Shown: positions 9,026 to 31,618 of the stretch, in pieces | How positions within the stretch are numbered: the stretch's first letter is position 1 | How the letters are laid out: each line of letters starts with the position of its first letter | Assembly: GCF_000392435.1 (NCBI RefSeq) | Contig: NC_021219.1 | Span: 840,001 to 872,000 of the forward strand | Source of the DNA: Candidatus Saccharimonas aalborgensis | Lineage (GTDB): Bacteria > Patescibacteriota > Saccharimonadia > Saccharimonadales > Saccharimonadaceae | Reading direction: 5' to 3' | DNA: 32,000 nucleotides | Made by a program: the position numbers and the translations under genes | Notes under the pieces: generated by a model | Databases searched by the model: none | The model's input: only the letters and a program-made list of their open reading frames with translations | Told to the model about the DNA's origin: nothing

Positions 9026-10732
9026 ATGGCAATAGAACAAAAATATTTAGACCAAGCGGCAAACGACCTATTCTTCGCATATGATGATTCGTTTGGATAT
9101 GCAGGCTTACCCCGGCCTACCACGACATATGACAGTGTTTTGGCCAGAGCCGCAAAGGAAGGTTCCACGAGCCAAAGCAAGGCCGTGTCGCTCATGCAAG
9201 AATATGCAGCATTGTTACAAAAGGAGGCAAATGATCCTAACACGCCGACAGGACCAACATCGTATGAGCTAAAAGAAGTAGACATATACGGGGTAAAGTA
9301 TTATGTGCTGAAGGACGATCCAAATCCTCATGTGGCATTTCGTGTCGACATCCCCGGCAAATTGATCATAGGAAATGCAATCCCTGGCTCGGGAAGCGAT
9401 GATGGTTATGCTCTTAACAATAATGCCGACCTTATTAACAACTATTTAAATAATAGTGCTATAGATGAACGAGATAAAAAGGTTGTTGCGCAGCTCATGG
9501 GCATTAGGCGGCCCACAGAAGCAGACATATTCAGGGCTGAAACTATCAGGAGTTATGGGGGTCTTACGCCAGGGGCCGCTGAGGAATTTGATCAAAATTT
9601 CTTCAACCCTGCCGCTGGGATTACGGAGGGAGTGCAAGAGAGACATGACGAAAAATTCGCATGGTGGAAGGAGGCGACAAATATGGAAAATGCGCAGTCC
9701 GAAGAAGAACTGCCGCTATACGCTCAATACGATCTGAAAATATTTGACCTCAACAATAAAATTGAGCTTTGGAAAGATCGTCCGGACGCGTTCCCTATCG
9801 AGGAAATAAATGCAGACCTGCAAGAGATGAAAAGGCTACAAGGCCTCTACGCTGCTACCCCAAAGCCAGATGTATTTAAGGATGAGGCGTTTAATTATGC
9901 TGCGACAGCAGGCTCCTCCTCAGGCGGCTCATCACCCGCGCCCACAGAAACAAATCCGAATACAAATACTACAGAGAATCCAAAAGATAGCACCGCTGAC
10001 GGCAATGTGCAAACTAACATCTCAAATAACTCCGTCACCGAAGATGATACCTTGACGGGGGGTGTAAAACCAGATAACCAAACGGGCTCAACATCAGACT
10101 CAGAGTCAGGTCCAGAAAAATCTGCCACACCCGCAACGCCTGCTACACCTGCGGTGACGTCGTCTAACTCATCAGGCAACTCTAATTCTAACAGCTCAGC
10201 CGATGAAAGTACTCCTTCTCGCCGCGACAAGAGTACTTCGAATAGTCACAAAGGTGCAGCTGCTGCGAGTAACACAGATGTTGCTGAGGATAGCAACGCG
10301 AGTATCGCTGGCGGTACCTACACCGTGAAAAAAGGCGACACTCTGAGCGAGATCGCACAGGCACACGGCATGGACTACCATACGCTGGCGAAGATAAATG
10401 GTATCGCCAATCCAAATTTGATTCACTCAGGTCAAATCATACGCATCGGCGATGGAGGGAGTGTTCCTAAGGAAGACCTATTGACCAGTACTCCAAGCGC
10501 GGGTACCTACACCGTGAAAAAAGGCGACACTCTGAGCGAGATCGCACAGGCACACGGCATGGACTACCATACGCTGGCGAAGATAAATGGTATCGCCGAC
10601 TCTCACTGGATCCATCCCGGACAACAGATAAGATTTAGTGATAGCGCAAGTGGTGGTCTAGGGGGCAGTACGGGAGACAATACCCTGCCATCCGGTGAGA
10701 TTGGTATGGTTCAGTACACAGATAGACAATAG
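9026..10732 (+). CDS. protein with unknown ~300-aa N-terminal domain, S/T/N/P-rich linker and two C-terminal LysM domains; no recognizable signal peptide
   Basis: 568-aa ORF with AGGAGG SD 7 nt upstream. There are two copies of YTVKKGDTLSEIAQAHGMDYHTLAKINGIA...G (LysM pattern). The N-terminus MAIEQKYLDQAANDLFFAYDD has no hydrophobic stretch. Confidence 0.85.
   Translation: MAIEQKYLDQAANDLFFAYDDSFGYAGLPRPTTTYDSVLARAAKEGSTSQSKAVSLMQEYAALLQKEANDPNTPTGPTSYELKEVDIYGVKYYVLKDDPNPHVAFRVDIPGKLIIGNAIPGSGSDDGYALNNNADLINNYLNNSAIDERDKKVVAQLMGIRRPTEADIFRAETIRSYGGLTPGAAEEFDQNFFNPAAGITEGVQERHDEKFAWWKEATNMENAQSEEELPLYAQYDLKIFDLNNKIELWKDRPDAFPIEEINADLQEMKRLQGLYAATPKPDVFKDEAFNYAATAGSSSGGSSPAPTETNPNTNTTENPKDSTADGNVQTNISNNSVTEDDTLTGGVKPDNQTGSTSDSESGPEKSATPATPATPAVTSSNSSGNSNSNSSADESTPSRRDKSTSNSHKGAAAASNTDVAEDSNASIAGGTYTVKKGDTLSEIAQAHGMDYHTLAKINGIANPNLIHSGQIIRIGDGGSVPKEDLLTSTPSAGTYTVKKGDTLSEIAQAHGMDYHTLAKINGIADSHWIHPGQQIRFSDSASGGLGGSTGDNTLPSGEIGMVQYTDRQ
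10313..10597 (+). repeat. two 96-bp copies identical at nucleotide level (10313-10408 and 10502-10597) encoding the LysM cores
   Basis: Direct reading shows both copies as ggtacctacaccgtgaaaaaaggcgacactctgagcgagatcgcacaggcacacggcatggactaccatacgctggcgaagataaatggtatcgcc. Confidence 0.9.
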
Positions 10733-10757
10733 CCCTTTACTTGCTTGGTGATCGGCT

Positions 10758-10794
10758 ACATACCCCAGCAGCACATATGTGAGCTGGGGTATGT
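10758..10794. terminator. bidirectional stem-loop between the convergent LysM and ABC genes
   Basis: Perfect 12-bp stem acataccccagc (10758-10769) / gctggggtatgt (10783-10794), followed by tatttc on the plus strand. Confidence 0.6.
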
Positions 10795-10830
10795 TATTTC
10801 ACAGTCTGGTCCCGGACCGATAAGGGTATT

Positions 10831-13047
10831 CTACTCTTCGCGTCGTTCGTGGTGGAATTCTACAACCACTTCGTCTGACATACTTAGGTCCGTCTCAGAA
10901 GAGCGCCCTGTAGTCTGATCGCTACTATGTGGCACAAAGAATACATCCCTTGAAGGCATCTCGACGTCTGACGAACCTATCTCTTGAAATACCTGTATGG
11001 TATTTGTCTGTCGTGCTTCAGGAACCGCCATATCCTGAATACCTATTTGGGTGTCAACTGCATTTGGAAGAACATAGCTCTTTTCATCAACGATTTCCTT
11101 CTCTGCTTGCTGAATAGCAATTCCTTCCAGTAGGGTGAGATAGTAATCTAGGCCGCCTAGCTCATTGACATTGGTTAGCGTGCCATTGTCTAATACATAA
11201 ATTGTATCCATGAGTGACAAGAGGGCTTTTCGGTGGGTTACCATGAGAACGGTTTTGTTGGTCACGATTCTCGATAAAGCGTCGCGAATATAGTTCTCAC
11301 TTTTGACGTCGAGGGCGGCGGTCGGCTCATCTAAACAGAGGATAGGAGCATTTTTAATCAGTGCACGTGCTATTGCCACCCGCTGTCGCTGACCACCGCT
11401 CAAAGAAGATCCGTTCTCGCCAACGAGCGTATTGATCCCAAGAGGTGTCTTAACAAGAAACTCGAGCACGTTAGACACTTCTACAGCGTTCATCACCTCT
11501 TCTGAGGTAATCCGCCTGTAGACATCGCCGTCATAAATATTTTCTGCGATGGTTCCACTAAAGAGCTGCGGGGTCTGGCTCACCCAAGAGATCTGACGTC
11601 TTAATTCTTGCAAAGAGAAACTCTGTGTGTCGTACCCGCCCAATAAAATACGTCCCTGGTCTGGCTCAATAAATAAAGGTAGCAGCTTTAAGACTGTGCT
11701 TTTTCCACCGCCACTTGGTCCAATAATTCCTACCTTTTCGCCCTCTCTGATTGTGATATTTAAATTCTTAAATATATCTTTCCCACCATATGAGTACGAG
11801 ACATTGTCAAACTGGATAACCGGGCGGATGCCCGCAGGAATATGGTCACCCTTTCTTAGAAATTCAACACCTTCATGGTCGCTTAGCACCTCATAGATAC
11901 GACTAACGTCAATCTCCTTTTGATACCGTGTGGTTATCTTTTTGACTAAGTTCTCAACTGGTCCTAGTAGGTACCCCATATACGTCATAAAGATGAAAAG
12001 TTCGCCAAATGTCATTTTCCCCTGCATGGCCTCGGTGCCACCAAAATACATCACTGTCGACGTTGCGAGGATCACAAGCAATGAGTTTGAATTCTCCAAA
12101 AGATTACCCCAAATAAGATTCTTACGACTTGCTTCGTAGCTGGCTCGCCAGTAGTTATCAACCTGCAATAGTTGCTTGTCTTCCAACGTAAAGGTCTGAA
12201 CCGTCTCGGCATTGTCAACGGCTTCATTGATTGAACTTGCTGTCTTGCTGTTAAGTTCAGTTAACTGTCTCGAGTATTTACCAAGATGCGGACCAATAAG
12301 TTTCATCGTAACGTATAGCATGGGCATGAGAACAACTGACACAATGGTCAGCCGTGGATTAAACGAAAACATTATGGCTAAGACGCCCATTATCATAATG
12401 ATCGAGCCGATGATAGATGAGGTCGTGTCAAGAACTAGGTCGGATAAACTATTTGTGACGACGTTTTGACGATAGACGTAGTCACCTTTTGCCAGGCGTT
12501 GCTGGTGAAAAAGTGGTAAATGCAATATGTGTAAAAAAGACTCGGTTTTAATTGAACGATTCAATGAAAAAGCAACTTTTTGAAGATGCATCGCACTAAT
12601 CCAGTTAAAGGCAGCACCGAAAAGGAATATCAGGATGGACATTATCGCCGTGTATGCAATCAGTGCGGGCTCACCAGTATAAGCTGTCAGCGGCCAAGGT
12701 GCAGGGATCGACCCAAATGCTGAATCGGCCATGATCTTCATAGGCCACGGTTTGAGCAGTGATATACCCGCGCTGATCGTTGTGACTATAACTACAGTTA
12801 CTACGCCTTTTGTTGCCTTTTTTTGGTATTTTTTTAGCCAAGTTTTGAAGTCAGTTTGTACTGTTCTCTTGACATTTACCTGCAGCCATGCATCAACTGC
12901 TGGATTGACCAATTCTGCGGGCCAGCCAATATCAATCAATACATCAGCCACCATATTTGGTTTCACACCACTTTTGACGGCCATGTCAACAGCTTGGAGT
13001 AACTGCGACATCACCTCATATTCTTTGTCCGCACCCCTTTTTTTCAT
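10831..13047 (-). CDS. ABC exporter, fused TMD-NBD (type I exporter fold), with extra ~90-aa N-terminal domain and ~120-aa acidic C-terminal tail
   Basis: 738-aa ORF with Walker A GPSGGGKST, signature LSGGQRQR and Walker B ILCLDEPTAALD. Six TM segments precede the NBD. TATAAT (13056-13061) lies 8 nt before ATG 13047. Confidence 0.9.
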   Translation of the reverse strand: MKKRGADKEYEVMSQLLQAVDMAVKSGVKPNMVADVLIDIGWPAELVNPAVDAWLQVNVKRTVQTDFKTWLKKYQKKATKGVVTVVIVTTISAGISLLKPWPMKIMADSAFGSIPAPWPLTAYTGEPALIAYTAIMSILIFLFGAAFNWISAMHLQKVAFSLNRSIKTESFLHILHLPLFHQQRLAKGDYVYRQNVVTNSLSDLVLDTTSSIIGSIIMIMGVLAIMFSFNPRLTIVSVVLMPMLYVTMKLIGPHLGKYSRQLTELNSKTASSINEAVDNAETVQTFTLEDKQLLQVDNYWRASYEASRKNLIWGNLLENSNSLLVILATSTVMYFGGTEAMQGKMTFGELFIFMTYMGYLLGPVENLVKKITTRYQKEIDVSRIYEVLSDHEGVEFLRKGDHIPAGIRPVIQFDNVSYSYGGKDIFKNLNITIREGEKVGIIGPSGGGKSTVLKLLPLFIEPDQGRILLGGYDTQSFSLQELRRQISWVSQTPQLFSGTIAENIYDGDVYRRITSEEVMNAVEVSNVLEFLVKTPLGINTLVGENGSSLSGGQRQRVAIARALIKNAPILCLDEPTAALDVKSENYIRDALSRIVTNKTVLMVTHRKALLSLMDTIYVLDNGTLTNVNELGGLDYYLTLLEGIAIQQAEKEIVDEKSYVLPNAVDTQIGIQDMAVPEARQTNTIQVFQEIGSSDVEMPSRDVFFVPHSSDQTTGRSSETDLSMSDEVVVEFHHERREE

Positions 13048-13273
13048 TACTGCTTATTATATCACTCTACTCCGCAAGAGGTATAGTCAAAATTTAGCCT
13101 ATCTACAACTCATATTGCCTGATGGTTTAGCCCTAATTTGACATAACAGATCGTTTGTATCCGAGCGGGCGCTTAGATATGAGTGCTAAGTGCATATCTG
13201 TAAGGACCACAACATAATAAGATTAGACTTACTGATACAGAAAAAGACCTTTCTGTGAAAGAAAAGTCTCTTA

Positions 13274-13602
13274 TGGTGATCCCACCGGGAATATCTAAAG
13301 ATGTAAACTATCCTCACTCGGAAAAATAAGCAAGCTGATTTTTCTCTCATTTCGTCGGTTTATCGAACCCTCCAGGTTCGGTTTCCTGACGGAAACCAAC
13401 CAGAGAAAAAACACCACCGTAGGGTGATGTTTTTTCTCTGGTGATCCCACCGGGAATACTAGAGTATATTGCGCCGTCGCAGCAAGCTGCCGGGCAATAG
13501 CGAACCGCGAGACGGGTTTGATTCCTCCGAGTAGAACTCGGCAAAGAAAAATCGCCTACCCATGCGGGGTAAGCGATTTTTCTTGGTGATCCCACCGGGA
13601 AT
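13274..13602 (-). repeat. three exact direct copies of the 19-nt tRNA-Glu 3' end (att-like), spaced 165 and 145 bp
   Basis: TGGTGATCCCACCGGGAAT occurs at 13274-13292, 13439-13457 and 13584-13602 (the last inside the tRNA gene). On the plus strand each copy is immediately preceded by a different stem-loop. Confidence 0.85.
13546..13582 (-). terminator. stem-loop directly downstream of tRNA-Glu
   Basis: gaaaaatcgcc...ggcgatttttc-type hairpin with inner taccc/gggta pairing. The T-run after the stem on the minus strand is short. Confidence 0.5.
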
Positions 13603-13658
13603 CGAACCCGGATTGCCAGGATGAGAACCTGGTGTCCTAACCGTTAGACGATGGGACC
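13584..13658 (-). tRNA. tRNA-Glu (anticodon CTC), CCA encoded
   Basis: Hand-folded 75 nt: GGTCCCA TC GTCT AACGGTTA GGAC A CCAGG TTCTCAT CCTGG CAAT CCGGG TTCGATT CCCGG TGGGATC A CCA. All four stems pair, with one G-U in the acceptor. Confidence 0.9.
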
Positions 13659-13695
13659 AATGCTGCTATATCGTAGCAAAAACAGAGGTGTTTGT

Positions 13696-14091
13696 CTAGC
13701 CATTTGCGGGGGTCGCGGGCTCAAGTGATGTAATCACTTCGAGGAGCTTGCGCGGGGTAATTTCTGCCTTGATAAGATATCCATCGACATCGTGTTCCAT
13801 CGCGGTACGGGATTCCTCATCTTGGTCAAAGTTGGTCATAACGAGGACATGCGTACCAGGAATAAGGTCTTTGCCTTCCCCCCTCAAAGCACGCAAAATA
13901 TCACTTCCGCGCATTTCTGGTAGCATAATATCGAGAAGAATGAGGTCGTAGCGGCGGTTGCGTGCCGCGACAAGCCCGTCGTTGCCATCAACCATCCAGT
14001 CGACAGTATAGCCGGCATGTTGGAGGCTACGAACATACATTTCGCCGATAAATCTGTCGTCCTCGATGCACAAAATAGTCTTGATAGCCAC
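13696..14091 (-). CDS. single-domain response regulator (receiver only, CheY-like)
   Basis: 131-aa ORF: ILCIEDD...LILLDIMLP (phospho-Asp)...VLVMTNF...YLIKA. No output domain. Confidence 0.85.
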   Translation of the reverse strand: MAIKTILCIEDDRFIGEMYVRSLQHAGYTVDWMVDGNDGLVAARNRRYDLILLDIMLPEMRGSDILRALRGEGKDLIPGTHVLVMTNFDQDEESRTAMEHDVDGYLIKAEITPRKLLEVITSLEPATPANG

Positions 14092-14096
14092 TCGAT

Positions 14097-15683
14097 TTAC
14101 CCCTTATACATTGAATGATTTTTTATCCAACCGCTCCCGCTATTGATGAGACTGGCATTGGTATGGTCGTTTGCCTGTAGTTTGTCAGCGACGGATGCGT
14201 AAATAGGAACGGTAAAGGTAAAGACAGACCCTTGGCCTTCGCTACTTTTCACTCCTATTGTACCACCGTGGGATTCGACAATTGCCTTACAAATGTAGAG
14301 ACCAATTCCTGTCCCGGCGACTGTTTCGCGCGAACGGTGGCTGCGGTAAAACTTGTGAAACAGATTGCCCACGATACTTGCAGGGATGCCTATGCCGTGG
14401 TCTTCAACCCATACGTTGACGAAGTTTCCTTCTACTGCGGCGCCAAGCGTTACAACACCACCTTCATTGCTATATTTTAGAGCATTGTCAATCAAGTTGG
14501 CCATCACTTCGCTGAGGCTTGAGCGATCAGCGGCAACGGTTGGAAGGTCTTGTGGTAGTGTAACAGAGAGAAGCCGACGTTGAGACTGAGCGCGCATGCG
14601 CATATCGTCACTAATTGTGTCGTAGATAGCGGCAAGTGAATCTTCGGCGAGGTGGATTTTCATGTGTCGACGATCAAACTTCGACGCGTTGAGGATATTA
14701 TTGATGTAGCCGCTGAGACGGTTTGCCGAAACAATCAGTCGCTTGATAAGCTCTGCTTGGTCGGGCTGTAGTGATGCGCCGAGCTCAATGTCCAGCACGT
14801 CGAGGTAACCTCGAATTACAGTGATGGGCCCACGTAGTTCATGAGCGGCAAAGGCAATGAAATCCAGCTCATCATCTTCTGGTTGATAAATATCCGTACG
14901 ATCAAACATCACCATCACTATCTCGGCCGCACTCCCCTTTTCGTAGGTGGCGGTGATATCAAAAATTCGTCGATCCTCCTCGCCGACAATTTTACTCGGT
15001 ATATGTAGCCATGATTTTTCGGCATGAACCGCCGTATCATGGCAGTCTTTGAGCCACTGTGTTAGTTCACCCTCCTTCTCAAATAGCAACTCCAAAACAA
15101 GTGAATTATCGGTCGTGCGGGTAACAGGTGCATGCTTATTGGCGAACTGTATCTGTCCCATGCTATCGAGTACAACAATACCCGCAGAGGTCTGGTCAAA
15201 GGCTTGCTTGAGACGTGTTGTGTCATCTGATAGGGATGAAGATTGTCGCTCGACAGGACCACCCGCTTCGGCTGCCGACTGATAGATATACTGCAGGAGC
15301 GGCTTGAAACCATCTCGCTCAAAATGTTTTGCGTTTGGATTTGGTGGCACAACGTCGCTTGGTTCACCAGAAACATGTGTTAGTGCTGCGGCGAGGTCTT
15401 TGAGGGGAATCAGCAGGTTCATTACCAAAATGTAGTTTAAGCTGAAGGTGCTCGCTGAAGTGGCAATCAGTACAATCCAAAAGGCTGCCGATGTGCTAGA
15501 AAACCCAGCAATAAGGAGCGACATTGCGACACAGATGACGATGAGGGTTTGCATACCGAGCGTCACCATAACGGCCGTGTTTCGGTATTTTGGCCAGTAT
15601 GCCTTAATAAGCGGCCGAGAAGTCCCTTTGGGCTCTACTGCCATGAGACACCTCCGGTACCATTTGGCACTGCGGCGATCCAC
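14097..15683 (-). CDS. membrane sensor histidine kinase
   Basis: H-box FAAHELRGPITVIRGY, N-box LIDNALKYS, G1 DHGIGIP, G2 GTGIGLYICK, and N-terminal TM segments. The start may be the internal MAVEPKG (15644). It overlaps the upstream gene end. Confidence 0.85.
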   Translation of the reverse strand: MDRRSAKWYRRCLMAVEPKGTSRPLIKAYWPKYRNTAVMVTLGMQTLIVICVAMSLLIAGFSSTSAAFWIVLIATSASTFSLNYILVMNLLIPLKDLAAALTHVSGEPSDVVPPNPNAKHFERDGFKPLLQYIYQSAAEAGGPVERQSSSLSDDTTRLKQAFDQTSAGIVVLDSMGQIQFANKHAPVTRTTDNSLVLELLFEKEGELTQWLKDCHDTAVHAEKSWLHIPSKIVGEEDRRIFDITATYEKGSAAEIVMVMFDRTDIYQPEDDELDFIAFAAHELRGPITVIRGYLDVLDIELGASLQPDQAELIKRLIVSANRLSGYINNILNASKFDRRHMKIHLAEDSLAAIYDTISDDMRMRAQSQRRLLSVTLPQDLPTVAADRSSLSEVMANLIDNALKYSNEGGVVTLGAAVEGNFVNVWVEDHGIGIPASIVGNLFHKFYRSHRSRETVAGTGIGLYICKAIVESHGGTIGVKSSEGQGSVFTFTVPIYASVADKLQANDHTNASLINSGSGWIKNHSMYKG

Positions 15684-16744
15684 GTTTGACCCCTAATGAG
15701 TGGGACTGCTTGACCAGAGGCGTCGAGTAACTCGAGTGGGCTACTTCTGCTCTTTTTGCGCCAGGTACATTCTGTCGCTATGCCATTTTGGAATACAACG
15801 GCGCTGCCGGTTCCCGACGTCGTGATACTTTCTCTGTAACCGTCTTCAAAGACGAGTGACATATCAACTTTCATTGCCACTACCACTGATGGTGCAATGC
15901 GTCCGAGCTCACGATCATTACTTGGTCCGCCAGCGACCGAGCGAAGGTAGGTGTTAGAGGTAGCATCGTAGGTGTACGCTGTATTGTAGAGAGGGCCGCT
16001 GATGTTGATAGTGACCGAGTTTGCCGTTGGACTCGCTGCAGGTTTACCGTCCACTCTGGGAAAGCTTGTGAAGTTTGATGTCGTATAGCCTTTGGTGGCA
16101 TTGAGGGCATCGAGACGCTCAAAATTTGTGTATACGTTGTGCGGTGGGTAGCGGTCACTGGCGCGCCAGTAAGAACTGCCATTGAAGAACTGATCGATAT
16201 CGCGGTAGGAGCCATTTCTGACTTCTTGGAGCGCGTACTGACTGCCTCCGACATGTGCAACACTTGCCTGGTAGGGCGCCAGCCAATCAACATAATAGAG
16301 TCGAACACTTCGTACGGGCCCGATAAGAGTCGGTTTTTGTTGCTGATAGAGCGCCAAAAAACGCGTGATTCCCCCCTCGGCCACCGCCTCATAGACGACG
16401 CCAGCGGATTTGAGTCCTGATTGTGGGCGTGCATCGGGGCTGTTTTCAATCATGATTGCTGTCACTGCCTGTTTTGTCGCCTGCTCGGACTCAACTTTCT
16501 CACCTGTGAGCGGTGAATAATACACCACAGGCGGAGCAGATTTTTTTGATGGTGACGGGGCGGAGGGAGTTGTATCGGACTGGGCTGGCTGTTGCGACAT
16601 CATGAATGCAGCAACACCACCGACCAGTATGATACTCACAACCCCCGCAAGAACAATACTGCGAGTTCGGTGAGTTCGGAGCCATTGGATGATGCGTGCA
16701 GGTGTTTTTTTGTGTGGCTCGGGCGCATAATACGTCGGTTTCAT
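15635..16744 (-). CDS. DUF3048 (YerB-like) membrane-anchored protein
   Basis: 369-aa ORF with an N-terminal TM. PLTGE...AIMIENSPDARPQSGLKSAGVVYEAVAEGGITRFLALY...IGPVRSVRLYY matches my memory of the DUF3048 core. TGCTATACT lies 10 nt upstream of the ATG. Confidence 0.7.
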   Translation of the reverse strand: MKPTYYAPEPHKKTPARIIQWLRTHRTRSIVLAGVVSIILVGGVAAFMMSQQPAQSDTTPSAPSPSKKSAPPVVYYSPLTGEKVESEQATKQAVTAIMIENSPDARPQSGLKSAGVVYEAVAEGGITRFLALYQQQKPTLIGPVRSVRLYYVDWLAPYQASVAHVGGSQYALQEVRNGSYRDIDQFFNGSSYWRASDRYPPHNVYTNFERLDALNATKGYTTSNFTSFPRVDGKPAASPTANSVTINISGPLYNTAYTYDATSNTYLRSVAGGPSNDRELGRIAPSVVVAMKVDMSLVFEDGYRESITTSGTGSAVVFQNGIATECTWRKKSRSSPLELLDASGQAVPLIRGQTWIAAVPNGTGGVSWQ

Positions 16745-16781
16745 GCTTACGCTTAGTATAGCAGAGGGGGGTATGCTAACG

Positions 16782-18200
16782 CTAGAGGCGAAATGCTAGA
16801 CGATCAAGGGTTCTCTCTCTTCCCAGCAGCGAAAGCGTGTCGTTTAGTTGTGGGCTAAACGGTGCCCAGGTAGTGACGATTCTGACGAGACTAAACAGTA
16901 CCGCGGGTGATTGACCAGTTTGTTCGAGAAGCCGATTTAGGCATATCTGTAACGCACCTGCTTGCCAATCATCACAGGCTTCAAATGAAGTTTTGACTAG
17001 TTCCAACAGATTGTTTATCTCATCAGCCGATAATTTTTTGAGCTGTTTATTGTCTAAAATTAGTTGTGGCTGAGGGGCCGGATCTTCAAAGAAATAGTTG
17101 GTGAGCATCGGCAGATCTTTGAGCGTCTTGAGGCGGTCTTGGGCAAGAGCTAGGACGCTACGCTTGTAGTCCTCAGGGTGTTTTTTGGCCGACTCTGGCC
17201 AAAAATACTCCACGCGGTTGATAAGATCATCGAGCGGCAGTTCGCGAATAAATTGTCCATTCATCCAGAGTAATCGCTTCTCGTCAAAGCGCGCACCACT
17301 ACGTTGTACGCGGTCGAGACTGAATTTTGTGATCAACTCATCCATCGTGAATACTTCCTGCTCAGTACCATCATTCCACCCCATCGTCGCGATGAAACTG
17401 TCGAGTGTTTCGGGCAAATAGCCATCGCGAATATAATCAAGCACATCTTTGGCGCCATCGCGCTTTCCTAATTTTTTGTTGCCCTGCTCGTTGAGAATAT
17501 GAGGCATATGGGCAAATACCGGATGAGTCAAGCCGAGAGCATCGTAGAGTGCTAGGTAGTTCGGCATACTGCTGATAAACTCTTGGCCACGGATAACATG
17601 TGTCACTTGCATCTCGGCATCGTCGACAATATGCGAAAAGTTGTATGTTGGGTAGCCGTCTGATTTGATGAGAATAAAATCATCGACCACTTCGGAGTTG
17701 GTGGTGATATCCCCCATTACCTCGTCGTGATAGTGATAGGCTTTTGGTTCGGTCTTAAAGCGAAGCGGCTGTGTGCCATCCCAGGCGGGTGGATTGTCGG
17801 GACGATAGTGACGATACAAAAACGCCTGTTTGTGCGCCGTTGCCTGGTCTCGAAATGCTTGAATTTCGTCGGCAGTATAGGGGTCGGCATAGGCACGTCC
17901 GGCGTCGATTAGTTTTTGAGCCCACTGTCGGTATATCTCAAGTCTTTCTGATTGTTTGTAGGGCGCAAACGGACCGCCAATATCAGGTCCCTCGTCATAG
18001 TGGAGTCCAAGTGATTTTAGGCTGGCGATCAGATGTTCTGCGCTGCCCGGCACTTCTCGTTTCTTGTCGGTGTCTTCGAGGCGCAAAATAAATTGGCCGC
18101 CGGCTTGCCTTGCTACAAGAAACGCAAATAAGGCGGTGCGAATACCGCCGACATGCAGATAGCCGGTGGGGCTCGGTGCAAATCGAGTGCGAATAGTCAT
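16782..18200 (-). CDS. gltX: glutamate--tRNA ligase
   Basis: 472 aa with RFAPSPTGYLHVGGIRTALF (HIGH region) and KLGKRDG (KMSKS-equivalent). The architecture is class I GluRS. Confidence 0.9.
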   Translation of the reverse strand: MTIRTRFAPSPTGYLHVGGIRTALFAFLVARQAGGQFILRLEDTDKKREVPGSAEHLIASLKSLGLHYDEGPDIGGPFAPYKQSERLEIYRQWAQKLIDAGRAYADPYTADEIQAFRDQATAHKQAFLYRHYRPDNPPAWDGTQPLRFKTEPKAYHYHDEVMGDITTNSEVVDDFILIKSDGYPTYNFSHIVDDAEMQVTHVIRGQEFISSMPNYLALYDALGLTHPVFAHMPHILNEQGNKKLGKRDGAKDVLDYIRDGYLPETLDSFIATMGWNDGTEQEVFTMDELITKFSLDRVQRSGARFDEKRLLWMNGQFIRELPLDDLINRVEYFWPESAKKHPEDYKRSVLALAQDRLKTLKDLPMLTNYFFEDPAPQPQLILDNKQLKKLSADEINNLLELVKTSFEACDDWQAGALQICLNRLLEQTGQSPAVLFSLVRIVTTWAPFSPQLNDTLSLLGRERTLDRLAFRL

Positions 18201-27541: not shown

Positions 27542-27964
27542 CTATAATGATTCGAGAACTGTACGACTTACACCGGCTTTTTTTGCGAGGTAGTCTATCA
27601 TTCGTTCCAAACGGTCGATCTTGTGTTGCATAGCTGCCATTTCGGCGGCATAGGTATCTAATTTTGCCGCATAGCCGTCTATCAGAGATTCGAGGCGTCT
27701 GATGTCGTCTTTTGTGGCCATATTCTCGAGTGTTTTTTCGATCGCGCTAAAGCGTTGTTCGTTGTAGACAAACATTTTATCAAACCGCTTATCAATCTTC
27801 TCGAACCGACTATCAATATGCTCAAACCGTTTATCGATTTTTTCAAACCTATCATCGATTTTCTCAAACCTATCATCAATCTTCTCGAACCGCTCAGTTA
27901 CTTCATTGGCAAACTGAGAAAGTGTTGACATAATTTCTGCGTTTGAAACATCGTCTGAACTCAT
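27542..27964 (-). CDS. coiled-coil protein with six tandem heptad units RFEKIDx
   Basis: 140 aa: ...TERFEKIDDRFEKIDDRFEKIDKRFEHIDSRFEKIDKRFDKM... followed by a second predicted helix. Confidence 0.7.
   Translation of the reverse strand: MSSDDVSNAEIMSTLSQFANEVTERFEKIDDRFEKIDDRFEKIDKRFEHIDSRFEKIDKRFDKMFVYNEQRFSAIEKTLENMATKDDIRRLESLIDGYAAKLDTYAAEMAAMQHKIDRLERMIDYLAKKAGVSRTVLESL
27767..27892 (-). repeat. six tandem 21-bp units inside the coiled-coil gene
   Basis: Units of 21 nt lie at 27892-27872, 27871-27851, 27850-27830, 27829-27809, 27808-27788 and 27787-27767. The last is degenerate. Confidence 0.85.
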
Positions 27965-27971
27965 ATGACAA

Positions 27972-28769
27972 TTATATCAGCTCTATACTGACCGGACAAT
28001 GGTCGCTGCCCATGACGTCGGGGTGGATAGTGGGGTTTTTGATCTGGCCAGCGATAGCTTTGCTTGCCAGCCAATAGTCGATGCGCCAGCCGACATTGCG
28101 GGCGCGGGCATTTGCCCAATGCGTCCACCAGGTGTATGCCTCGCTGCGGTCCGGGTAGGCGGCGCGGAACGTATCCACAAAGCCCGCTTCTAGGTAGTCG
28201 CCAAATCGTTCTCGCTCTTGGTCCGTGAAGCCGTGCTTGCCGACATTTGGTTTGGGGTTAGCCAGATCGATTTCCTGATGAGCGACGTTCATGTCGCCAC
28301 AGTAGAGGACGGGCTTTGAGGTTTCGAGCTGTCGGAGGTATGCCAGGCAGGCGCGGTCCCAGTGCTGATAGCGGAGGTTCAGCCGGCTGAGATCACCCTT
28401 GCTATTTGGTGTGTAGCAGGTCACGACCCAAAATTTGTCAAATTCGGCGGCGATGATACGTCCTTCGGCATTGGGGTCACCGTAGCTGTCACCCGTGACG
28501 CCGTAAGTAGCGATAATGTTCGCAGGAAAGCCGTCGATATAGCGAAGGGCGGGCGTTTTGGTAAAGATAGCGGTACCGCTATAGCCCTTTTTGACGGCAC
28601 TATAGAAATGTTCTTCGTATTGTGGTAGGTCGATCTCGACTTGCCCACGCTCGGCCTTGGTTTCTTGCAAACAGAGAATGTCTGGGTCATGATCGGCGAT
28701 AAATCGCTGCAAGGTTCCCTTGCTTAGTACGGCACGAATTCCATTGACGTTCCAGGAGTATAACTTCAT
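27972..28769 (-). CDS. xth: exodeoxyribonuclease III
   Basis: MKLYSWNVNGIRAV..., LCLQETK, GDMNVAH, SDHCPV. Start trimmed to ATG 28769 to match the canonical ExoIII N-terminus. The ORF-track extension to 28877 is not believed. Confidence 0.9.
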   Translation of the reverse strand: MKLYSWNVNGIRAVLSKGTLQRFIADHDPDILCLQETKAERGQVEIDLPQYEEHFYSAVKKGYSGTAIFTKTPALRYIDGFPANIIATYGVTGDSYGDPNAEGRIIAAEFDKFWVVTCYTPNSKGDLSRLNLRYQHWDRACLAYLRQLETSKPVLYCGDMNVAHQEIDLANPKPNVGKHGFTDQERERFGDYLEAGFVDTFRAAYPDRSEAYTWWTHWANARARNVGWRIDYWLASKAIAGQIKNPTIHPDVMGSDHCPVSIELI

Positions 28770-28775
28770 GAGGTT

Positions 28776-28781
28776 ATTATA
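28776..28781 (-). promoter_or_regulatory. TATAAT box 6 nt upstream of the xth ATG (candidate leaderless promoter)
   Basis: The minus strand reads GCTATAAT AACCTC ATG. Confidence 0.45.
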
Positions 28782-28922
28782 GCGTGCTTTGGTTTCATAT
28801 AAAAAAGACCCTGGCGTAGCCGGATCAATCAAATGGTTGTTACATGAAAGGGCGGTGACCCGCCCGACGCTCTTCAAGGAGGCATCGGGCGGGTCTGGTG
28901 GTAAAACCCTGAGGATAAGAGA

Positions 28923-29423
28923 TCACTCGCCGGGGATCGGCAGTGCCTCCAGCTCCCACCCCTTCAGCTCATCGCTGTAGCGCAGCCGTCCGTAGACGGG
29001 CTGGCCGGCGACCAACTGGTCCATGAGACCGCGGTCGGGTCGTTGGCAGACGATCTCGTGGTTGCCCATCCACAGCGTGACGGGGTTGAGGCCGGCCACC
29101 CCTGGTTTGGAGAGCTTGTAGAGATGATTCGCCGCTCGCTCATTGTGGACACTCACCCAGGCGTAGCGGGTGACGTGGAACCAGCCCGTGTTCCATTCGC
29201 GGTCGCGCTTGGCGAGCAGCTGGTCGCCTCGGTACCCGAGGAAGAGGGCTGTGATCAACATCACGACTCCCCAGATCAGCAGGTACGAGTTGACTTTCGG
29301 ACGCATCATGAGCCCAACCAGAAGCATGGTGGGGCCAGTAATGCCACACACCGCCATCGCCCAAGAGGCGATGGCGGCCTTGCGGTGGTAGAAGCCGTAC
29401 TTGCTAGGTACTTCGGTGGCCAC
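28923..29423 (-). CDS. hypothetical membrane protein: two N-terminal TM helices plus ~100-aa soluble C-terminal domain (YdbS/bPH- or NfeD-like architecture)
   Basis: 166 aa with a GTG start preceded by AAGGGAGG and high GC3. TMs are AAIASWAMAVCGITGPTMLLVGLMM and SYLLIWGVVMLITALFLGY. The family is not recognisable by eye. Confidence 0.65.
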   Translation of the reverse strand: MATEVPSKYGFYHRKAAIASWAMAVCGITGPTMLLVGLMMRPKVNSYLLIWGVVMLITALFLGYRGDQLLAKRDREWNTGWFHVTRYAWVSVHNERAANHLYKLSKPGVAGLNPVTLWMGNHEIVCQRPDRGLMDQLVAGQPVYGRLRYSDELKGWELEALPIPGE

Positions 29424-29502
29424 AGGGGGCCTCCCTTCGTTTGATGGGATATTACCATTATTATTATAACATAAATAACAATATAAATAAATACTTAGTC
29501 AA

Positions 29503-29528
29503 ATAAAAAAACACCCTGTTGAGGGGTG
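29503..29528 (-). terminator. rho-independent terminator after the SPFH gene
   Basis: The minus strand reads CACCCCTCAACAGGGTG followed by TTTTTTTATTTG. Confidence 0.7.
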
Positions 29529-29613
29529 AAAACGTGACAAGCTAGGAATCGGTGGCTCACCTCGAGCTGGCGGGGGATCACTCCCCCGCCAGCTCTGTAA
29601 AGGTGGGCAGGTA

Positions 29614-30669
29614 CTACTTGGTGGCGGTTCCGCTGGGCACGACCACCGCGGAGCTGCCGCCGGGCCAGCAACTGAAGCCAGCCGGTAGCGGATACCCCTT
29701 GGCGATGGCGTCCGCCAGGTGGTCGAGGCACTTCGAGACCAGGACGTTGGGATCCTTGGACACTGAAGCCGCCAACTTCTCGTTGGCGATAGCTTGCTGT
29801 TCCGCGGTCTTGACGGCTTGCTGTGCAATGCGCGTCTGGGCTACCTGGCCCTGGAGGTCATTGATCTTGCGCTGGGTGGCATCGTCGTAGTTCATGACGG
29901 TGACCGCCAGCTCCGACACGTCGATCTGGGATCCCACCGCGGTCCTCATCTTGGTGAGGGCCTGACCGCTGAGGACCGACAGTTCGGGTGCGTTGGACTG
30001 ACCGGTCTCGGCATCGACCGACAGCGGGTCGTACGACTCGAAGACGGCATTGAGGACCGACTGCAAGTTCTTGGTCACCAGGGCATCCCTGATGTTCTCG
30101 AACGTGCGGTAGTTCTGGAACAGCCCATCGACCGCCGTCTCCTTGGCCTGCCACTTGACGTACATGTTGGCGCAGGCCACGATTTGGTGCGCGATGCGCA
30201 CCTGGATGCAGCCCTCGTTGAAGGCGGCTCCGGTGGGGCGGTTGTGCGTGTCGGTCTGGATGGCACCGTCCATCAGAGTGACATCCTGCCACGGTGCCTT
30301 GAAGTGAGGGCCGTTGGACATGGAGCTGGTGGGCGCGCCGAGGGTGGTGACCACACCGATGTCCTTGGTGGGGACGATGACGAAGGTGGAGAAGAACAGC
30401 ATGATCGCGGCGAGACCCGCGAGTGCCACACTGCCGTACCTCGTGACCTTGCCGGTGATGGCCTGGGTGCTGGTGTCCGGACGCTGGGGCTGCAATTCGT
30501 GGAAGTAAAGCCCGCGGTTCTCTGCAGCGTCACGCCGCGAGCGCCAGTCGGCCAGCTCCTTCTTGTAATTGTCTTCGATGCCGCTGGCATCGTCGCTGTT
30601 CTTTCGCGCATAGATGCGCGTGCCGATTGCGGCAAGGAGCAGCAACGCGACAACGATGGTTTCGATCAT
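29614..30669 (-). CDS. SPFH / band-7 (stomatin-prohibitin-flotillin-HflK/C) domain membrane protein
   Basis: 351 aa with two TM segments (aa 3-20 and ~79-100). VPTKDIGVVTTLGAPTSSMSNGPHFKAPWQDV... is a typical SPFH core start. The C-terminus is a Q/A-rich coiled coil (INDLQGQVAQTRIAQQAVKTAEQQAIANEKLA). GC3 is very high. Confidence 0.7.
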   Translation of the reverse strand: MIETIVVALLLLAAIGTRIYARKNSDDASGIEDNYKKELADWRSRRDAAENRGLYFHELQPQRPDTSTQAITGKVTRYGSVALAGLAAIMLFFSTFVIVPTKDIGVVTTLGAPTSSMSNGPHFKAPWQDVTLMDGAIQTDTHNRPTGAAFNEGCIQVRIAHQIVACANMYVKWQAKETAVDGLFQNYRTFENIRDALVTKNLQSVLNAVFESYDPLSVDAETGQSNAPELSVLSGQALTKMRTAVGSQIDVSELAVTVMNYDDATQRKINDLQGQVAQTRIAQQAVKTAEQQAIANEKLAASVSKDPNVLVSKCLDHLADAIAKGYPLPAGFSCWPGGSSAVVVPSGTATK

Positions 30670-30827
30670 TGACAGTCTCTCTGCGACGGGTTTGGGCTCC
30701 CGAATCGCACACCACTATCAAGCCAGTTGATAGCAAGGTGCGACTCGGGATAATTCAGTAGTAAATTGATTCCTAGCTTGTCAAGCGCGAGGGTTGCTCG
30801 CACTATGCACGCGTGTAGGCGTGACAT
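30666..30827 (-). CDS. candidate 53-aa upstream ORF translationally coupled (ATGA) to the SPFH gene; may instead be a structured 5' leader
   Basis: Own translation from ATG 30827: MSRLHACIVRATLALDKLGINLLLNYPESHLAINWLDSGVRFGSPNPSQRDCQ-stop. The TGA (30666-30668) overlaps the SPFH ATG (30667-30669). TATAAT (30836-30841) lies 8 nt upstream. Codon bias is weak and the region contains long palindromes. Confidence 0.3.
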   Translation of the reverse strand: MSRLHACIVRATLALDKLGINLLLNYPESHLAINWLDSGVRFGSPNPSQRDCQ

Positions 30828-30889
30828 CGTTGCATATTATAGCAAATTATAGTTAAAAAGTCAATACGTTTTCCAGTGGTCACACCTGC

Positions 30890-30895
30890 TATACT
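30890..30895 (+). promoter_or_regulatory. TATACT box (TGCTATACT) 6 nt upstream of the pyrH ATG (candidate leaderless promoter)
   Basis: The plus strand reads CTGCTATACT AAGCTC ATG. Confidence 0.45.
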
Positions 30896-30901
30896 AAGCT
30901 C

Positions 30902-31618
30902 ATGTATAAACGAATCTTACTCAAACTTTCAGGCGAACAACTACAGGGCTCTCACGAGAGCGGATTTGATACTGAGCGTGCCGTGTGGATCGCTGGACAG
31001 CTCAAACAAGCCCTCGCGACAGGGGTACAAATCGTCATCATGGTTGGTGGTGGCAATTATGCGCGTGGAGCGCAGCTTGCTGATGACAAAATACAGCGCA
31101 TCACTGGGGATTATGTCGGTATGCTGGCCACACTTATGAATGCGCTGACACTGGCTGATGTATTCAATAGCGAGGGCGTCGATGCGCGAGCACTGAGCAA
31201 TATCGAGGCGAATCAGCTTGTTGACCAATTTACCCACCGTCGAGCGGTGAGCCATCTCGATAAACACCGGGTCGTGATCGTGGCGGGCGGAACTGGGCGG
31301 CCGTTCCTCACGACCGATACGGCTGCGGTCAATCTCGCACTAGAGTTACAATGTGATGTTGTAGTCAAGACAACGAAGGTTGACGGTGTCTATACCGCAG
31401 ACCCGGCTCTCGACACCACAGCTACCAAATATGAGCATCTCAGTTACGATGAAGTCATCGCTAACCCCTCTATCACCGTCATGGACAAGGCGGCAATCGG
31501 TCTCGCGCTTGAGCAGCACATTCCTATCGTGATCTGTGATCTCCTGACGGAGGGAAATATAGCCCGTGCAGCTCGTGGCGATACTGTCGGTACACTCATA
31601 GGTGAAAAAATGGCATGA
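30902..31618 (+). CDS. pyrH: UMP kinase
   Basis: 238 aa: YKRILLKLSGEQL, VIMVGGGNYARG, VVIVAGGTGRPFLTTDTAA. This is the typical PyrH amino-acid kinase fold pattern. Confidence 0.9.
   Translation: MYKRILLKLSGEQLQGSHESGFDTERAVWIAGQLKQALATGVQIVIMVGGGNYARGAQLADDKIQRITGDYVGMLATLMNALTLADVFNSEGVDARALSNIEANQLVDQFTHRRAVSHLDKHRVVIVAGGTGRPFLTTDTAAVNLALELQCDVVVKTTKVDGVYTADPALDTTATKYEHLSYDEVIANPSITVMDKAAIGLALEQHIPIVICDLLTEGNIARAARGDTVGTLIGEKMA

Follow-up and report, generated by a model that had tools for sequence, protein, structure and literature searches.

Saccharibacteria are obligate epibionts of Actinobacteria and have genomes of approximately 1 Mb. The window analysed here, a 32,000-nucleotide stretch of Candidatus Saccharimonas aalborgensis (contig NC_021219.1, positions 840,001 to 872,000), carries a high-GC segment between xth and pyrH. 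The segment encodes an SPFH/band-7 protein (29614-30669, minus strand, 351 aa) and an orphan protein with two predicted transmembrane (TM) helices (28923-29423, minus strand, 166 aa, GTG start). An initial annotation described it as a horizontally acquired 2-kb island from an actinobacterial or actinophage donor, in which a membrane scaffold and its small partner might form a phage-exclusion module. The question raised by this locus is whether two genes of foreign appearance arrived recently and together, and whether they act as a pair. The reading that we favour, with moderate confidence, is that pyrH and xth enclose an accessory slot, old and prone to recombination, which is common to a Saccharibacterial clade. 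The segment would be its allele in S. aalborgensis and would consist of an exchangeable cassette and an independent 166-aa unit.

Alternative cargoes in the pyrH-xth slot

The window was compared with loci L001-L008, from sister strains of the S. aalborgensis group, and with other numbered loci from relatives. In blastn comparisons with L001, L002, L005, and L008, junctions were placed at window positions 29621 and 30680, within flanks that are 88-98% identical. The exchangeable cargo segment is 29622-30679 (minus strand); it begins 11 nt ahead of the SPFH start codon and ends 2 codons short of its stop. In three assemblies of sister strains (L001/L002, L005, and others), the flanking xth, pyrH, VanY, PGA_cap, NUDIX, and HAD proteins are 95-98% identical to those of the window. 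The SPFH segment is swapped there for unrelated genes for membrane proteins of 207 and 594 aa, and the 5' leader and 3' untranslated region (UTR) are kept.

The same slot is occupied in more distant relatives. It holds SPFH genes in L009, L012, L023, L036, and L037, and a pair of 170-207-aa and ~600-aa genes in L001-L008, L034, and L035. The gene order is pyrH / SPFH / 64 aa / xth in L009, SPFH / xth in L012, and pyrH / 138 aa / SPFH / second SPFH / 155 aa / xth in L036; in L023, an SPFH pseudogene is followed by xth. The 594-aa family has 15 homologues only, and its distant members also lie in the pyrH-xth slot (L034, L035), with GC contents at third codon positions (GC3) of 0.78-0.92. No actinobacterial homologue of the 166-aa or 594-aa family was found; the 207-aa protein was compared with profile libraries only. 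Judged by sequence reading, the slot products all appear to be membrane proteins.

When GTDB species genomes were scanned with a pattern seed, the SPFH family turned up in Actinomycetota and Saccharibacteria alone. Copies from Actinomycetota share 41-55% identity with the window protein, and among their carriers are Cellulomonas, Pengzhenrongella, Nostocoides, Intrasporangiaceae, Dermatophilaceae, Aeromicrobium, Propionibacteriales, and Mycobacterium. Among phages, the protein matched the PHROG family phrog_200 over residues 77-323 (E 2.1e-40, 140 bits). A tblastn search returned 366 phage records, all of them actinophages (Mycobacterium 256, Streptomyces 89, Gordonia 15, Rhodococcus 5). These phage homologues are 37-45% identical and are annotated 'band-7-like membrane protein'; they include temperate actinophages and M. 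abscessus prophages. The closest relatives outside Saccharibacteria are chromosomal Micrococcales genes (50-55%), not phage genes. Actinobacterial chromosomal copies stand alone among ordinary metabolic genes, with no conserved neighbour, partner, or prophage context in the loci examined. The closest homologues with examined context are all Saccharibacterial, at 62-75% identity, and sit in the same pyrH-xth slot. No paper describing the locus, its repeated box element (see below), or an SPFH link between Saccharibacteria and Actinobacteria was found in the literature.

Since the family is otherwise found only in Actinomycetota, the host phylum, and in actinophages, an actinobacterial source is a reasonable guess for the SPFH gene. 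Cultured Saccharibacteria have actinobacterial hosts only (PMC11659515, PMC11880426), and little host-derived DNA was found in TM7x (PMC7427843). In neighbour-joining trees of 308 columns and few taxa, the five slot SPFHs flanked by the box pair form a clade (bootstrap 100) within a clade that includes Micrococcales-type sequences (bootstrap 100). It is plausible that the SPFH gene is of actinobacterial origin and was acquired long ago by an ancestor of this Saccharibacterial clade. Three further Saccharibacterial copies (L022, L028, L029) are placed among other groups of actinobacterial sequences, with support of 53-75%; this position suggests that the gene was transferred more than once. Of the donor proposed initially, the actinobacterial and actinophage kinship of the SPFH gene is retained; the import itself does not appear recent, as the near-saturated slot orthologues discussed below indicate.

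SPFH and flank identities are discordant. L009 is 84% identical to the window in xth and 65% in SPFH, L036 is 75% identical in both, and the window SPFH groups with the first L036 copy (L036a, bootstrap 88). This discordance therefore indicates cargo exchange among Saccharibacterial lineages. Because the replacement is precise to the open reading frame (ORF) and the gene tree disagrees with the flanks, we infer that cargoes are swapped between strains and lineages by homologous recombination, for which the conserved UTRs and the flanking housekeeping genes would serve as homology arms. In the mechanism proposed, the first unit would be a self-contained cassette with a strong promoter, a box-containing leader, one or more cargo ORFs, a GC-rich hairpin, the reverse-complement box, and a terminator. 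Its cargo in S. aalborgensis would be a cage-forming SPFH scaffold captured anciently from Actinomycetota. The second unit would encode an unrelated two-TM protein that is specific to the lineage and whose TM hairpin diversifies fast.

The variation among strains suggests selection from phages or host contact. A more specific proposal, possible though doubtful, is that the locus serves phage exclusion or surface variation, with envelope proteins under frequency-dependent selection and the SPFH protein possibly acting in superinfection exclusion. It would account for the cassette polymorphism and for the hypervariable TM hairpin of the 166-aa gene. In its favour are the apparent membrane location of the slot products, the wide occurrence of homologues in temperate actinophages and M. 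abscessus prophages, and a combination of strain-level presence and absence, deep allelic divergence, and mosaic recombination that is typical of diversifying or balancing selection. However, PADLOC gave no meaningful hit: only BrxC for the SPFH protein, at E 0.0025 and 14 bits (noise), and nothing in PADLOC-DB for the 166-aa, 207-aa, 594-aa, or 155-aa proteins. There are no defence or prophage genes in the neighbourhood, and the defence module suggested earlier thus finds no counterpart here. In the one prophage examined, genes for early replication and recombination surround the band-7-like gene, which lies outside the lysogenic immunity region, and the phage homologue LeBron gp49 is listed 'NKF', with mild cytotoxicity only. 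In addition, the ratio of nonsynonymous to synonymous divergence (dN/dS) of 0.5-0.9 in the TM hairpin of the 166-aa gene fits relaxed constraint as well as diversifying selection.

The SPFH protein and its 166-aa neighbour

The 351-aa product is 100% identical to the NCBI entry 'SPFH/Band 7/PHB domain protein [Candidatus Saccharimonas aalborgensis]'. Pfam Band_7 (PF01145) matched residues 98-293 over profile positions 2-176 of 176 (E 7.8e-12, 46 bits against a cutoff of 23.6). An AlphaFold2 (AF2) model from a 34-sequence alignment had a predicted local distance difference test (pLDDT) value of 83. In this model, residues 2-52 and 67-95 form helices ahead of an alpha/beta SPFH domain (96-261); coiled coils follow (263-303, 308-324), and the tail is disordered. 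Foldseek matched the model to prohibitin, HflK/C, erlin, stomatin, and flotillin (E 1e-10 to 5e-6, probability 1.0), with 8rrh, 7vhq, 9cz2, 9vvj, and 9z7u at E 1e-10 to 1e-8. At the sequence level, the protein is only marginally similar to SPFH proteins of known structure (HflC profile E 0.005; 13-18% identity). The first assignment to the SPFH/band-7 family is borne out by the Pfam match and the fold.

Cys 154, 166, 314, and 334 and a C-terminal FSCWPG tail are invariant across the family, and a K/R-rich loop joins the two N-terminal helices. The predicted disulfides are Cys154/166 and Cys314/334. The likeliest assembly is an oligomeric ring or cage that these helices hold in the membrane. 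From the positive-inside rule, the four invariant cysteines, and the HflK/C-like layout, the SPFH domain is inferred to lie on the outer membrane face. Its task at the epibiont envelope would be to organise a membrane client or to shield it.

For the 166-aa protein, AF2 gave long helices at 8-39 and 42-77, followed by a beta-rich domain of ~90 aa (pLDDT 42-63). The helices are read as two TM helices, in agreement with the first description of the protein. Its homologues number only four, each from the S. aalborgensis group and each at this same site; beyond that one cluster, a profile search of 1.84 billion representatives was negative. The protein had no match in Pfam, NCBIfam, PHROG, PADLOC, or PDB. 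The only sub-threshold Pfam model was DUF6095, which scored 15 bits on the TM region (E 0.021; cutoff 23.8). The soluble domain had been called unrecognised, and it found no library, PDB, or distant-homologue match.

The two parts of the 166-aa gene evolve differently. The TM-hairpin segment (29204-29400, minus strand, approximately codons 9-73) is hypervariable, with 34-70% DNA identity in all three pairwise strain comparisons and 96-100% in the flanks; the first 8 codons and the upstream region are at least 92% identical between strains. In the hairpin, nonsynonymous divergence (dN) is 0.50-0.76 and synonymous divergence (dS) is 0.76-1.09; the values for xth are 0.013-0.021 and 0.11-0.22. 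The C-terminal soluble domain (28926-29203, minus strand, ~93 aa, KRDREWNTGWF...ALPIPGE) is conserved, with dN 0.06-0.12 and dN/dS ~0.2-0.5, and holds most of the 75 invariant columns. By these alignments, the pace of diversification or recombination is apparently far higher in the TM hairpin than in the genome as a whole. In L001 and L005, the upstream cassette is the same, yet the TM regions are 26% identical; TM variation is therefore uncoupled from the cargo. A diversity-generating retroelement was considered as a source of the variation and rejected. The 32-kb window has no second copy of 29150-29423 that could be a template repeat and no long ORF with the YxDD motif of a reverse transcriptase, and the variation includes indels and is not confined to particular bases.

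The SPFH and 166-aa genes co-occur only in this species. SPFH is present without the 166-aa gene in L009, L010, and L012, and the 166-aa gene is present without SPFH in L001-L008, where the gene for the 594-aa non-SPFH protein precedes it. The pair proposed in the initial annotation is thus not co-inherited, its co-localisation is not conserved elsewhere, and actinobacterial SPFH genes have no conserved neighbour. As gene content stands, the 166-aa protein appears to be a neighbour of SPFH, not an obligate partner.

An unlikely alternative is a two-component module in which the 166-aa protein regulates or nucleates the SPFH cage as an analogue of a short NfeD protein. The arrangement of N-terminal TM helices and a ~90-aa beta-rich C-terminal domain presumably resembles that of YuaF and YbbJ, and 8z5g, an SPFH-NfeD complex of QmcA and YbbJ, is among the Foldseek matches listed for the SPFH model. 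Moreover, SPFH is followed by a two-TM and beta-rich protein of 155 aa in L036 and L037, and by a two-TM protein of 64 aa in L009. Profile searches nevertheless returned no NfeD relationship. NfeD (PF01957) gave no hit at E<=0.1 with the whole protein or at E<=1 with residues 71-166, and neither bPH_2 nor DUF3592, the other models suggested for this protein, matched it or its isolated domain in Pfam. No NfeD chain appeared in the PDB profile search at E<=10, and Foldseek with the low-confidence C-terminal model gave no hit at E<1. Comparison by hhalign with the 155-aa and 150-aa proteins of L036 was not significant. Gene content is equally unfavourable to an NfeD-like module: the 166-aa gene is kept in L001-L008 with SPFH replaced by unrelated genes, and SPFH lacks it in L009, L010, L012, and all actinobacterial and phage contexts examined. 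By the predicted topologies, the soluble domain of the 166-aa protein would be cytoplasmic and the SPFH domain extracytoplasmic, and the TM-hairpin allele does not co-vary with the cassette type, as L001 and L005 illustrate. In the vicinity of the L036 cassettes, three small two-TM and beta-rich proteins (138, 155, and 150 aa) have GC3 values of 0.73-0.88.

The untranslated frame of the cassette

The cassette is enclosed by elements that persist with any cargo. Its promoter (30836-30864, minus strand) consists of TTGACT, a 17-nt spacer, and a TG-extended TATAAT, matches the sigma-70-type consensus at 11/12 positions, and stands back to back with the pyrH promoter region. The TTGACTTTTT...TATAAT-like sequence upstream of the cassette is kept in L001, L009, L010, L012, L023, L034, and both L036 units. 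A structured 5' leader of ~160 nt follows (30670-30829, minus strand), with small hairpins at 30784-30827, a 16-nt element here called BOX, and a long hairpin at 30698-30750. BOX (30768-30783, minus strand) reads TGACAAGCTAGGAATC on the gene strand. Downstream of the SPFH stop lie a GC-rich hairpin with a 14-bp perfect stem (29564-29595, minus strand), the 3' arm BOX' (29535-29550, minus strand; GATTCCTAGCTTGTCA on the gene strand), and an intrinsic terminator (29505-29528, minus strand; CACCCCTCAACAGGGTG then T7). Within the 3' UTR, BOX' thus separates the GC hairpin from the terminator, whose position is kept in most related loci.

The 166-aa gene is a separate unit. It has a strong ribosome-binding site (RBS) of its own, AAGGGAGG, at 29430-29437, an AT-rich upstream region (29440-29504, minus strand), and a GC-rich 3' hairpin (28857-28895, minus strand) with 93% complementary arms; a terminator-like site at 28865-28850 lies in this hairpin region, which is the probable 3' end of the unit. 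Two minus-strand transcription units were recognised, as in the initial annotation.

BOX and BOX' form a perfect 16-nt inverted repeat with arms 1217 nt apart and are the only two exact copies in 32 kb. The box pair (core ACAAGCTAGGAAT) flanks the cargo in L001-L008, L009, L010/L011, L012, L023, L034, and both tandem L036 units. It accompanies SPFH, a second SPFH type, and the 207-aa and 594-aa pair alike, and is absent from actinobacterial loci. The boxes of L010 and L012 have one compensatory change in common (G:C to A:U), and those of L036 have a 1-nt bulge.

What is conserved around the boxes is architecture and not sequence: promoter, small hairpin or hairpins, BOX, long hairpin, RBS, ORF or ORFs, GC-rich hairpin, BOX', and terminator. 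The leader is 94-98.6% identical to those of sister strains up to 11 nt before the ATG. Its hairpins fold with z scores of -3.5 and -4.7 in the window, and the post-box hairpin has z scores of -4 to -9 in 7/8 instances (the L012 segment was shortened by a mis-called start). Every related locus has a counterpart of the post-stop hairpin (z -7.1 in the window), different in sequence and with z scores of -3.4 to -10.3. In the long leader hairpin, the window and L009 differ by compensatory changes (C:G to U:A) and have completely different inner-stem sequences. In the 3' UTR alignment, double-sided changes affect 5/13 predicted pairs (the GC stem and three terminator pairs). Cofolding of the 5' and 3' UTRs predicted a BOX:BOX' duplex in 7/7 instances. 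MAFFT with RNAalifold predicted no pairs in the leaders, where the variable hairpins were misaligned and the L012 range was too short.

Searches for the frame outside these loci gave little. An Rfam 15 covariance search of 28700-31000 returned nothing below E = 1 (best E 1.1), all far below the gathering threshold; in the whole window, Rfam found two tRNAs only. A metagenome scan with the 15-mer TRACAAGCTAGGAAT gave at least 120 matches, mostly single and due to chance; among the matches listed, L128 has both box arms in reverse order. A viral-contig scan for the box gave 80 single matches and no pairs.

The initial annotation also listed a candidate 53-aa upstream ORF (30666-30827). This was rejected, and the region is better described as a structured leader. 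The frame starts at approximately the predicted transcription start site, lies wholly inside the leader, and encodes a peptide that is not conserved. The equivalent L009 frame gives an unrelated peptide after the box-encoded DKLGI, and the RNA hairpin is kept there by compensatory changes.

In our preferred interpretation, BOX and BOX' would pair into a helix that joins the two UTRs and serves either to clamp the transcript for stability or as a site for RNase III. A role of the boxes at the DNA level is less likely than such an RNA helix. Its explicit form, that they are recombination sites (the arms of an invertible, phase-variable segment or the terminal inverted repeats of a non-autonomous mobile cassette), is decidedly unlikely. 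It draws on the perfect inverted repeat around the cargo, on conservation of the arm sequence itself across lineages, beyond complementarity, and on the two tandem units in L036. However, the orientation to pyrH and xth is the same in all of more than 10 independent assemblies examined (the window, L239, L001-L008, L009, L012, L023, L034, L036), and the unit is always in the same chromosomal slot. No recombinase or transposase domain was found among the annotated neighbours, and there is no target-site duplication. The exchanged segment ends inside the boxes and adjacent hairpins, not at the boxes, and the adjacent hairpins covary as RNA structures do.

Three further observations concern the frame. 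In L036 (2130-4330), there are two tandem units, each with a promoter, box pair, and terminator, that encode Band_7 proteins of 303 aa and 270 aa. In L023 (5900-6800), a metagenome-assembled genome of an uncultured Candidatus Saccharibacteria, the SPFH orthologue is interrupted by two frameshifts and by a W codon changed to an in-frame stop. This may be a pseudogene or an assembly error, and the box pair is still present. Sister-strain metagenome contigs (the ends of L006 and L007; L004) break in or beside the cassette, ~55 nt upstream of a 162-aa gene. These breaks are consistent with co-existing cassette variants that split the assembly graph.

Composition, origin, and known systems

The foreign appearance of the segment is real. 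The GC content is 0.50 in the window and 0.63 in each of the SPFH and 166-aa genes. Their GC3 values are 0.852 (z = 6.2) and 0.826 (z = 5.7), compared with a mean of 0.513 (standard deviation 0.055, n=25) for the other window ORFs; the reported bias towards G/C-ending codons is hence confirmed. The codon choice is actinobacteria-like (AAG/AAA 17/0, TTC/TTT 10/0), and the third base is C at 0.51 and G at 0.34, whereas native genes are roughly even. First- and second-position GC contents (GC1/GC2) are 0.58/0.43, slightly under the actinobacterial 0.64/0.48.

The same composition recurs throughout the slot. All listed slot genes in related loci have GC3 values of 0.70-0.92, and most flanking genes have values of 0.45-0.68. 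Among the SPFH slot orthologues, identity at four-fold sites is 0.45-0.52, where 0.35-0.38 is expected at saturation, and the GC content at these sites (GC4) is 0.74-0.88 in every lineage. The 594-aa family likewise combines near-saturated synonymous sites with high GC3. The flanking xth and pyrH genes are also at or near synonymous saturation (xth of the window and L036: 0.47, with 0.35 expected). High GC3 is not a simple leftover of a donor, because it persists across near-saturated synonymous divergence and because it is also found in slot genes without an actinobacterial homologue. A rough amelioration estimate from residual synonymous identity gives a GC3 of ~0.7 for transfer at the split. 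The observed values of 0.80-0.90 exceed this; the composition is therefore maintained, not merely inherited. Some force would keep GC3 high, and the candidates suggested by these sequences are codon or mRNA selection on strongly expressed cassette genes and GC-biased gene conversion at a recombination hotspot. A foreign-looking codon composition is thus shown not to mean recent transfer here, which advises caution in composition-based calls of horizontal gene transfer (HGT).

Two observations extend beyond the slot genes. The neighbouring xth (27972-28769) has the highest GC3 among the native window genes, 0.64, and its GC3 is 0.63-0.66 in all related genomes (L009, L012, L034-L036); this may be spill-over of the force that raises GC3 in the slot. 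In L010, a high-GC3 block adjoins the SPFH cassette (9192-16820; TerC 0.79, PRTase_3 0.63 and 0.72, a 220-aa protein 0.82, a 440-aa protein 0.81). It also contains a vWA-TerF-like gene and has the look of a tellurite-resistance locus; the other genes of that genome have GC3 values of 0.41-0.53.

We regard it as very unlikely that the segment is a recent 2-kb actinobacterial or actinophage island that brought both genes with un-ameliorated donor GC3. The actinobacteria-like codon usage of both genes, the otherwise actinobacterial and actinophage distribution of the SPFH family, and the lack of SPFH in sister strains with 97% identical flanks all favour such an island. However, the closest SPFHs (62-75%) are Saccharibacterial and have the same slot and box pair, compared with 41-55% for actinobacterial and 37-45% for phage copies. 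These best homologues have the same high GC3 (0.8-0.9) at near-saturated synonymous sites; orthologues of like composition in related genomes are largely what was recovered, in opposition to the recent acquisition proposed at first. The 166-aa, 207-aa, and 594-aa families are equally GC3-rich, and the first and last have no actinobacterial homologue. The replaced segment is the ORF only, set in native and conserved UTRs, and neither 28700-31000 nor the neighbouring genes contain an integrase, tRNA target, or direct repeats; a target-site duplication is also lacking. Finally, fusion of a contaminating high-GC contig into the TM7 genome can be dismissed, since its sole support is the abrupt composition shift, whereas an independent ENA scaffold (L239) is 99.4% identical across window 28441-31087 with the same order pyrH-SPFH-166aa-xth, P0001 is present on 12 contigs, and syntenic islands with identical junctions occur in sister-strain assemblies from NCBI, ENA, and Logan, so that the junctions are genuine.

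A fuller version of the slot-allele reading can be offered tentatively. The segment may be an RNA-framed, 'plug-in' envelope-protein cassette in which the leader box pairs with its 3' complement to close an mRNA loop buttressed by hairpins, the UTRs act as homology arms, and host-like GC3 is kept by selection or biased gene conversion. Together with its hypervariable-TM neighbour, it would act at the interface between epibiont and host or between epibiont and phage.

Several points weigh against reading the segment as an old slot allele with an independent second unit. No genes for ribosomal proteins, EF-Tu, GroEL, or similar proteins, against which the high GC3 could be set, were present in the window or the Saccharibacterial loci compared. 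The trees are small, the polyphyly of the outlying Saccharibacterial copies is backed at only 53-75%, and the direction of transfer, from Actinomycetota to Saccharibacteria, is read from breadth of distribution. The small two-TM proteins that follow SPFH in L036, L037, and L009 may reflect a loose functional association of SPFH with such proteins. The outward SPFH topology is a deduction, and the box pair could act on DNA rather than RNA.

Around the slot, the neighbours are pyrH, xth, VanY, PGA_cap, NUDIX, HAD, a sortase, and a tRNA synthetase, with no phage genes. The true start of xth is ATG 28769, and pyrH is 30902-31618 on the plus strand. The listed xth start (TTG 28877) is too far upstream, as xth homologues have 264-265 aa. 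The -10-like hexamers of xth (TATAAT) and pyrH (TATACT) end ~6 nt before the ATG (28769-28803; 30880-30902), which suggests that both mRNAs are leaderless or near-leaderless. A 140-aa coiled-coil protein of low GC (0.41) adjoins the region (27542-27964). Its gene has a 21-nt tandem repeat (7-aa, RFEKIDx) of ~5.4 copies at 27774-27892, and its length of 77-140 aa among sister strains suggests copy-number variation. Elsewhere in the window, an ORF at 4747-6150 combines ferric-reductase TM, FAD-binding, and NAD-binding domains, as in a bacterial NADPH-oxidase-like protein, which is unexpected for a reduced fermentative epibiont.

What makes the locus interesting is less an island of SPFH and partner acquired by HGT than its population genetics, the composition that it maintains, and its cis-frame. 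It is a concrete example of an SPFH scaffold common to Saccharibacteria, their host phylum, and the phages of that phylum. Like HflK/HflC, prohibitin, erlin, stomatin, flotillin, and QmcA, the protein has a Band_7 domain with an N-terminal anchor, an SPFH1/2 domain, a long coiled coil, and a C-terminal tail, and its inferred outward SPFH domain matches that of HflK/C. It differs from HflK/C-type proteins in its second N-terminal helix, where they have one helix, and in its four invariant cysteines and FSCWPG tail. It is also encoded by a single gene rather than an HflK/HflC pair, with no adjacent ftsH or nfeD. The actinophage protein of phrog_200 belongs to the same profile family, but the gene described here is chromosomal, with housekeeping flanks and its own promoter, leader, and terminator. 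SPFH-NfeD operons (YuaF-FloT, QmcA-YbbJ) have the same order of an SPFH gene and a gene for a small TM and beta-rich protein. In contrast to them, the two genes here are separate transcription units that are not co-inherited, the second has no NfeD signature, and the 166-aa family is found in one narrow Saccharibacterial lineage.

As a small and well-delimited hotspot at which near-identical strains carry different membrane proteins, the slot resembles flexible replacement islands such as O-antigen and capsule loci in its fixed site, alternative contents in near-identical strains, atypical composition, and mosaic history. Unlike those islands, it exchanges one or two genes that encode membrane proteins, its borders lie at the ORF ends inside conserved UTRs, and its GC3 is kept over deep divergence. 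Pairing between 5' and 3' UTRs is known from S. aureus icaR and B. subtilis hbs, and RNase III stems bracket rRNA or phage transcripts. The paired boxes and covarying hairpins are a candidate cis-element of this kind, which might serve as a native expression frame for genetic work. They share with icaR and hbs complementary ends of one predicted transcript, stable hairpins, and a predicted closing helix of 14-16 bp. They differ from them in that the boxes are invariant in sequence across lineages, frame interchangeable cargos, and are clear of the real RBS.

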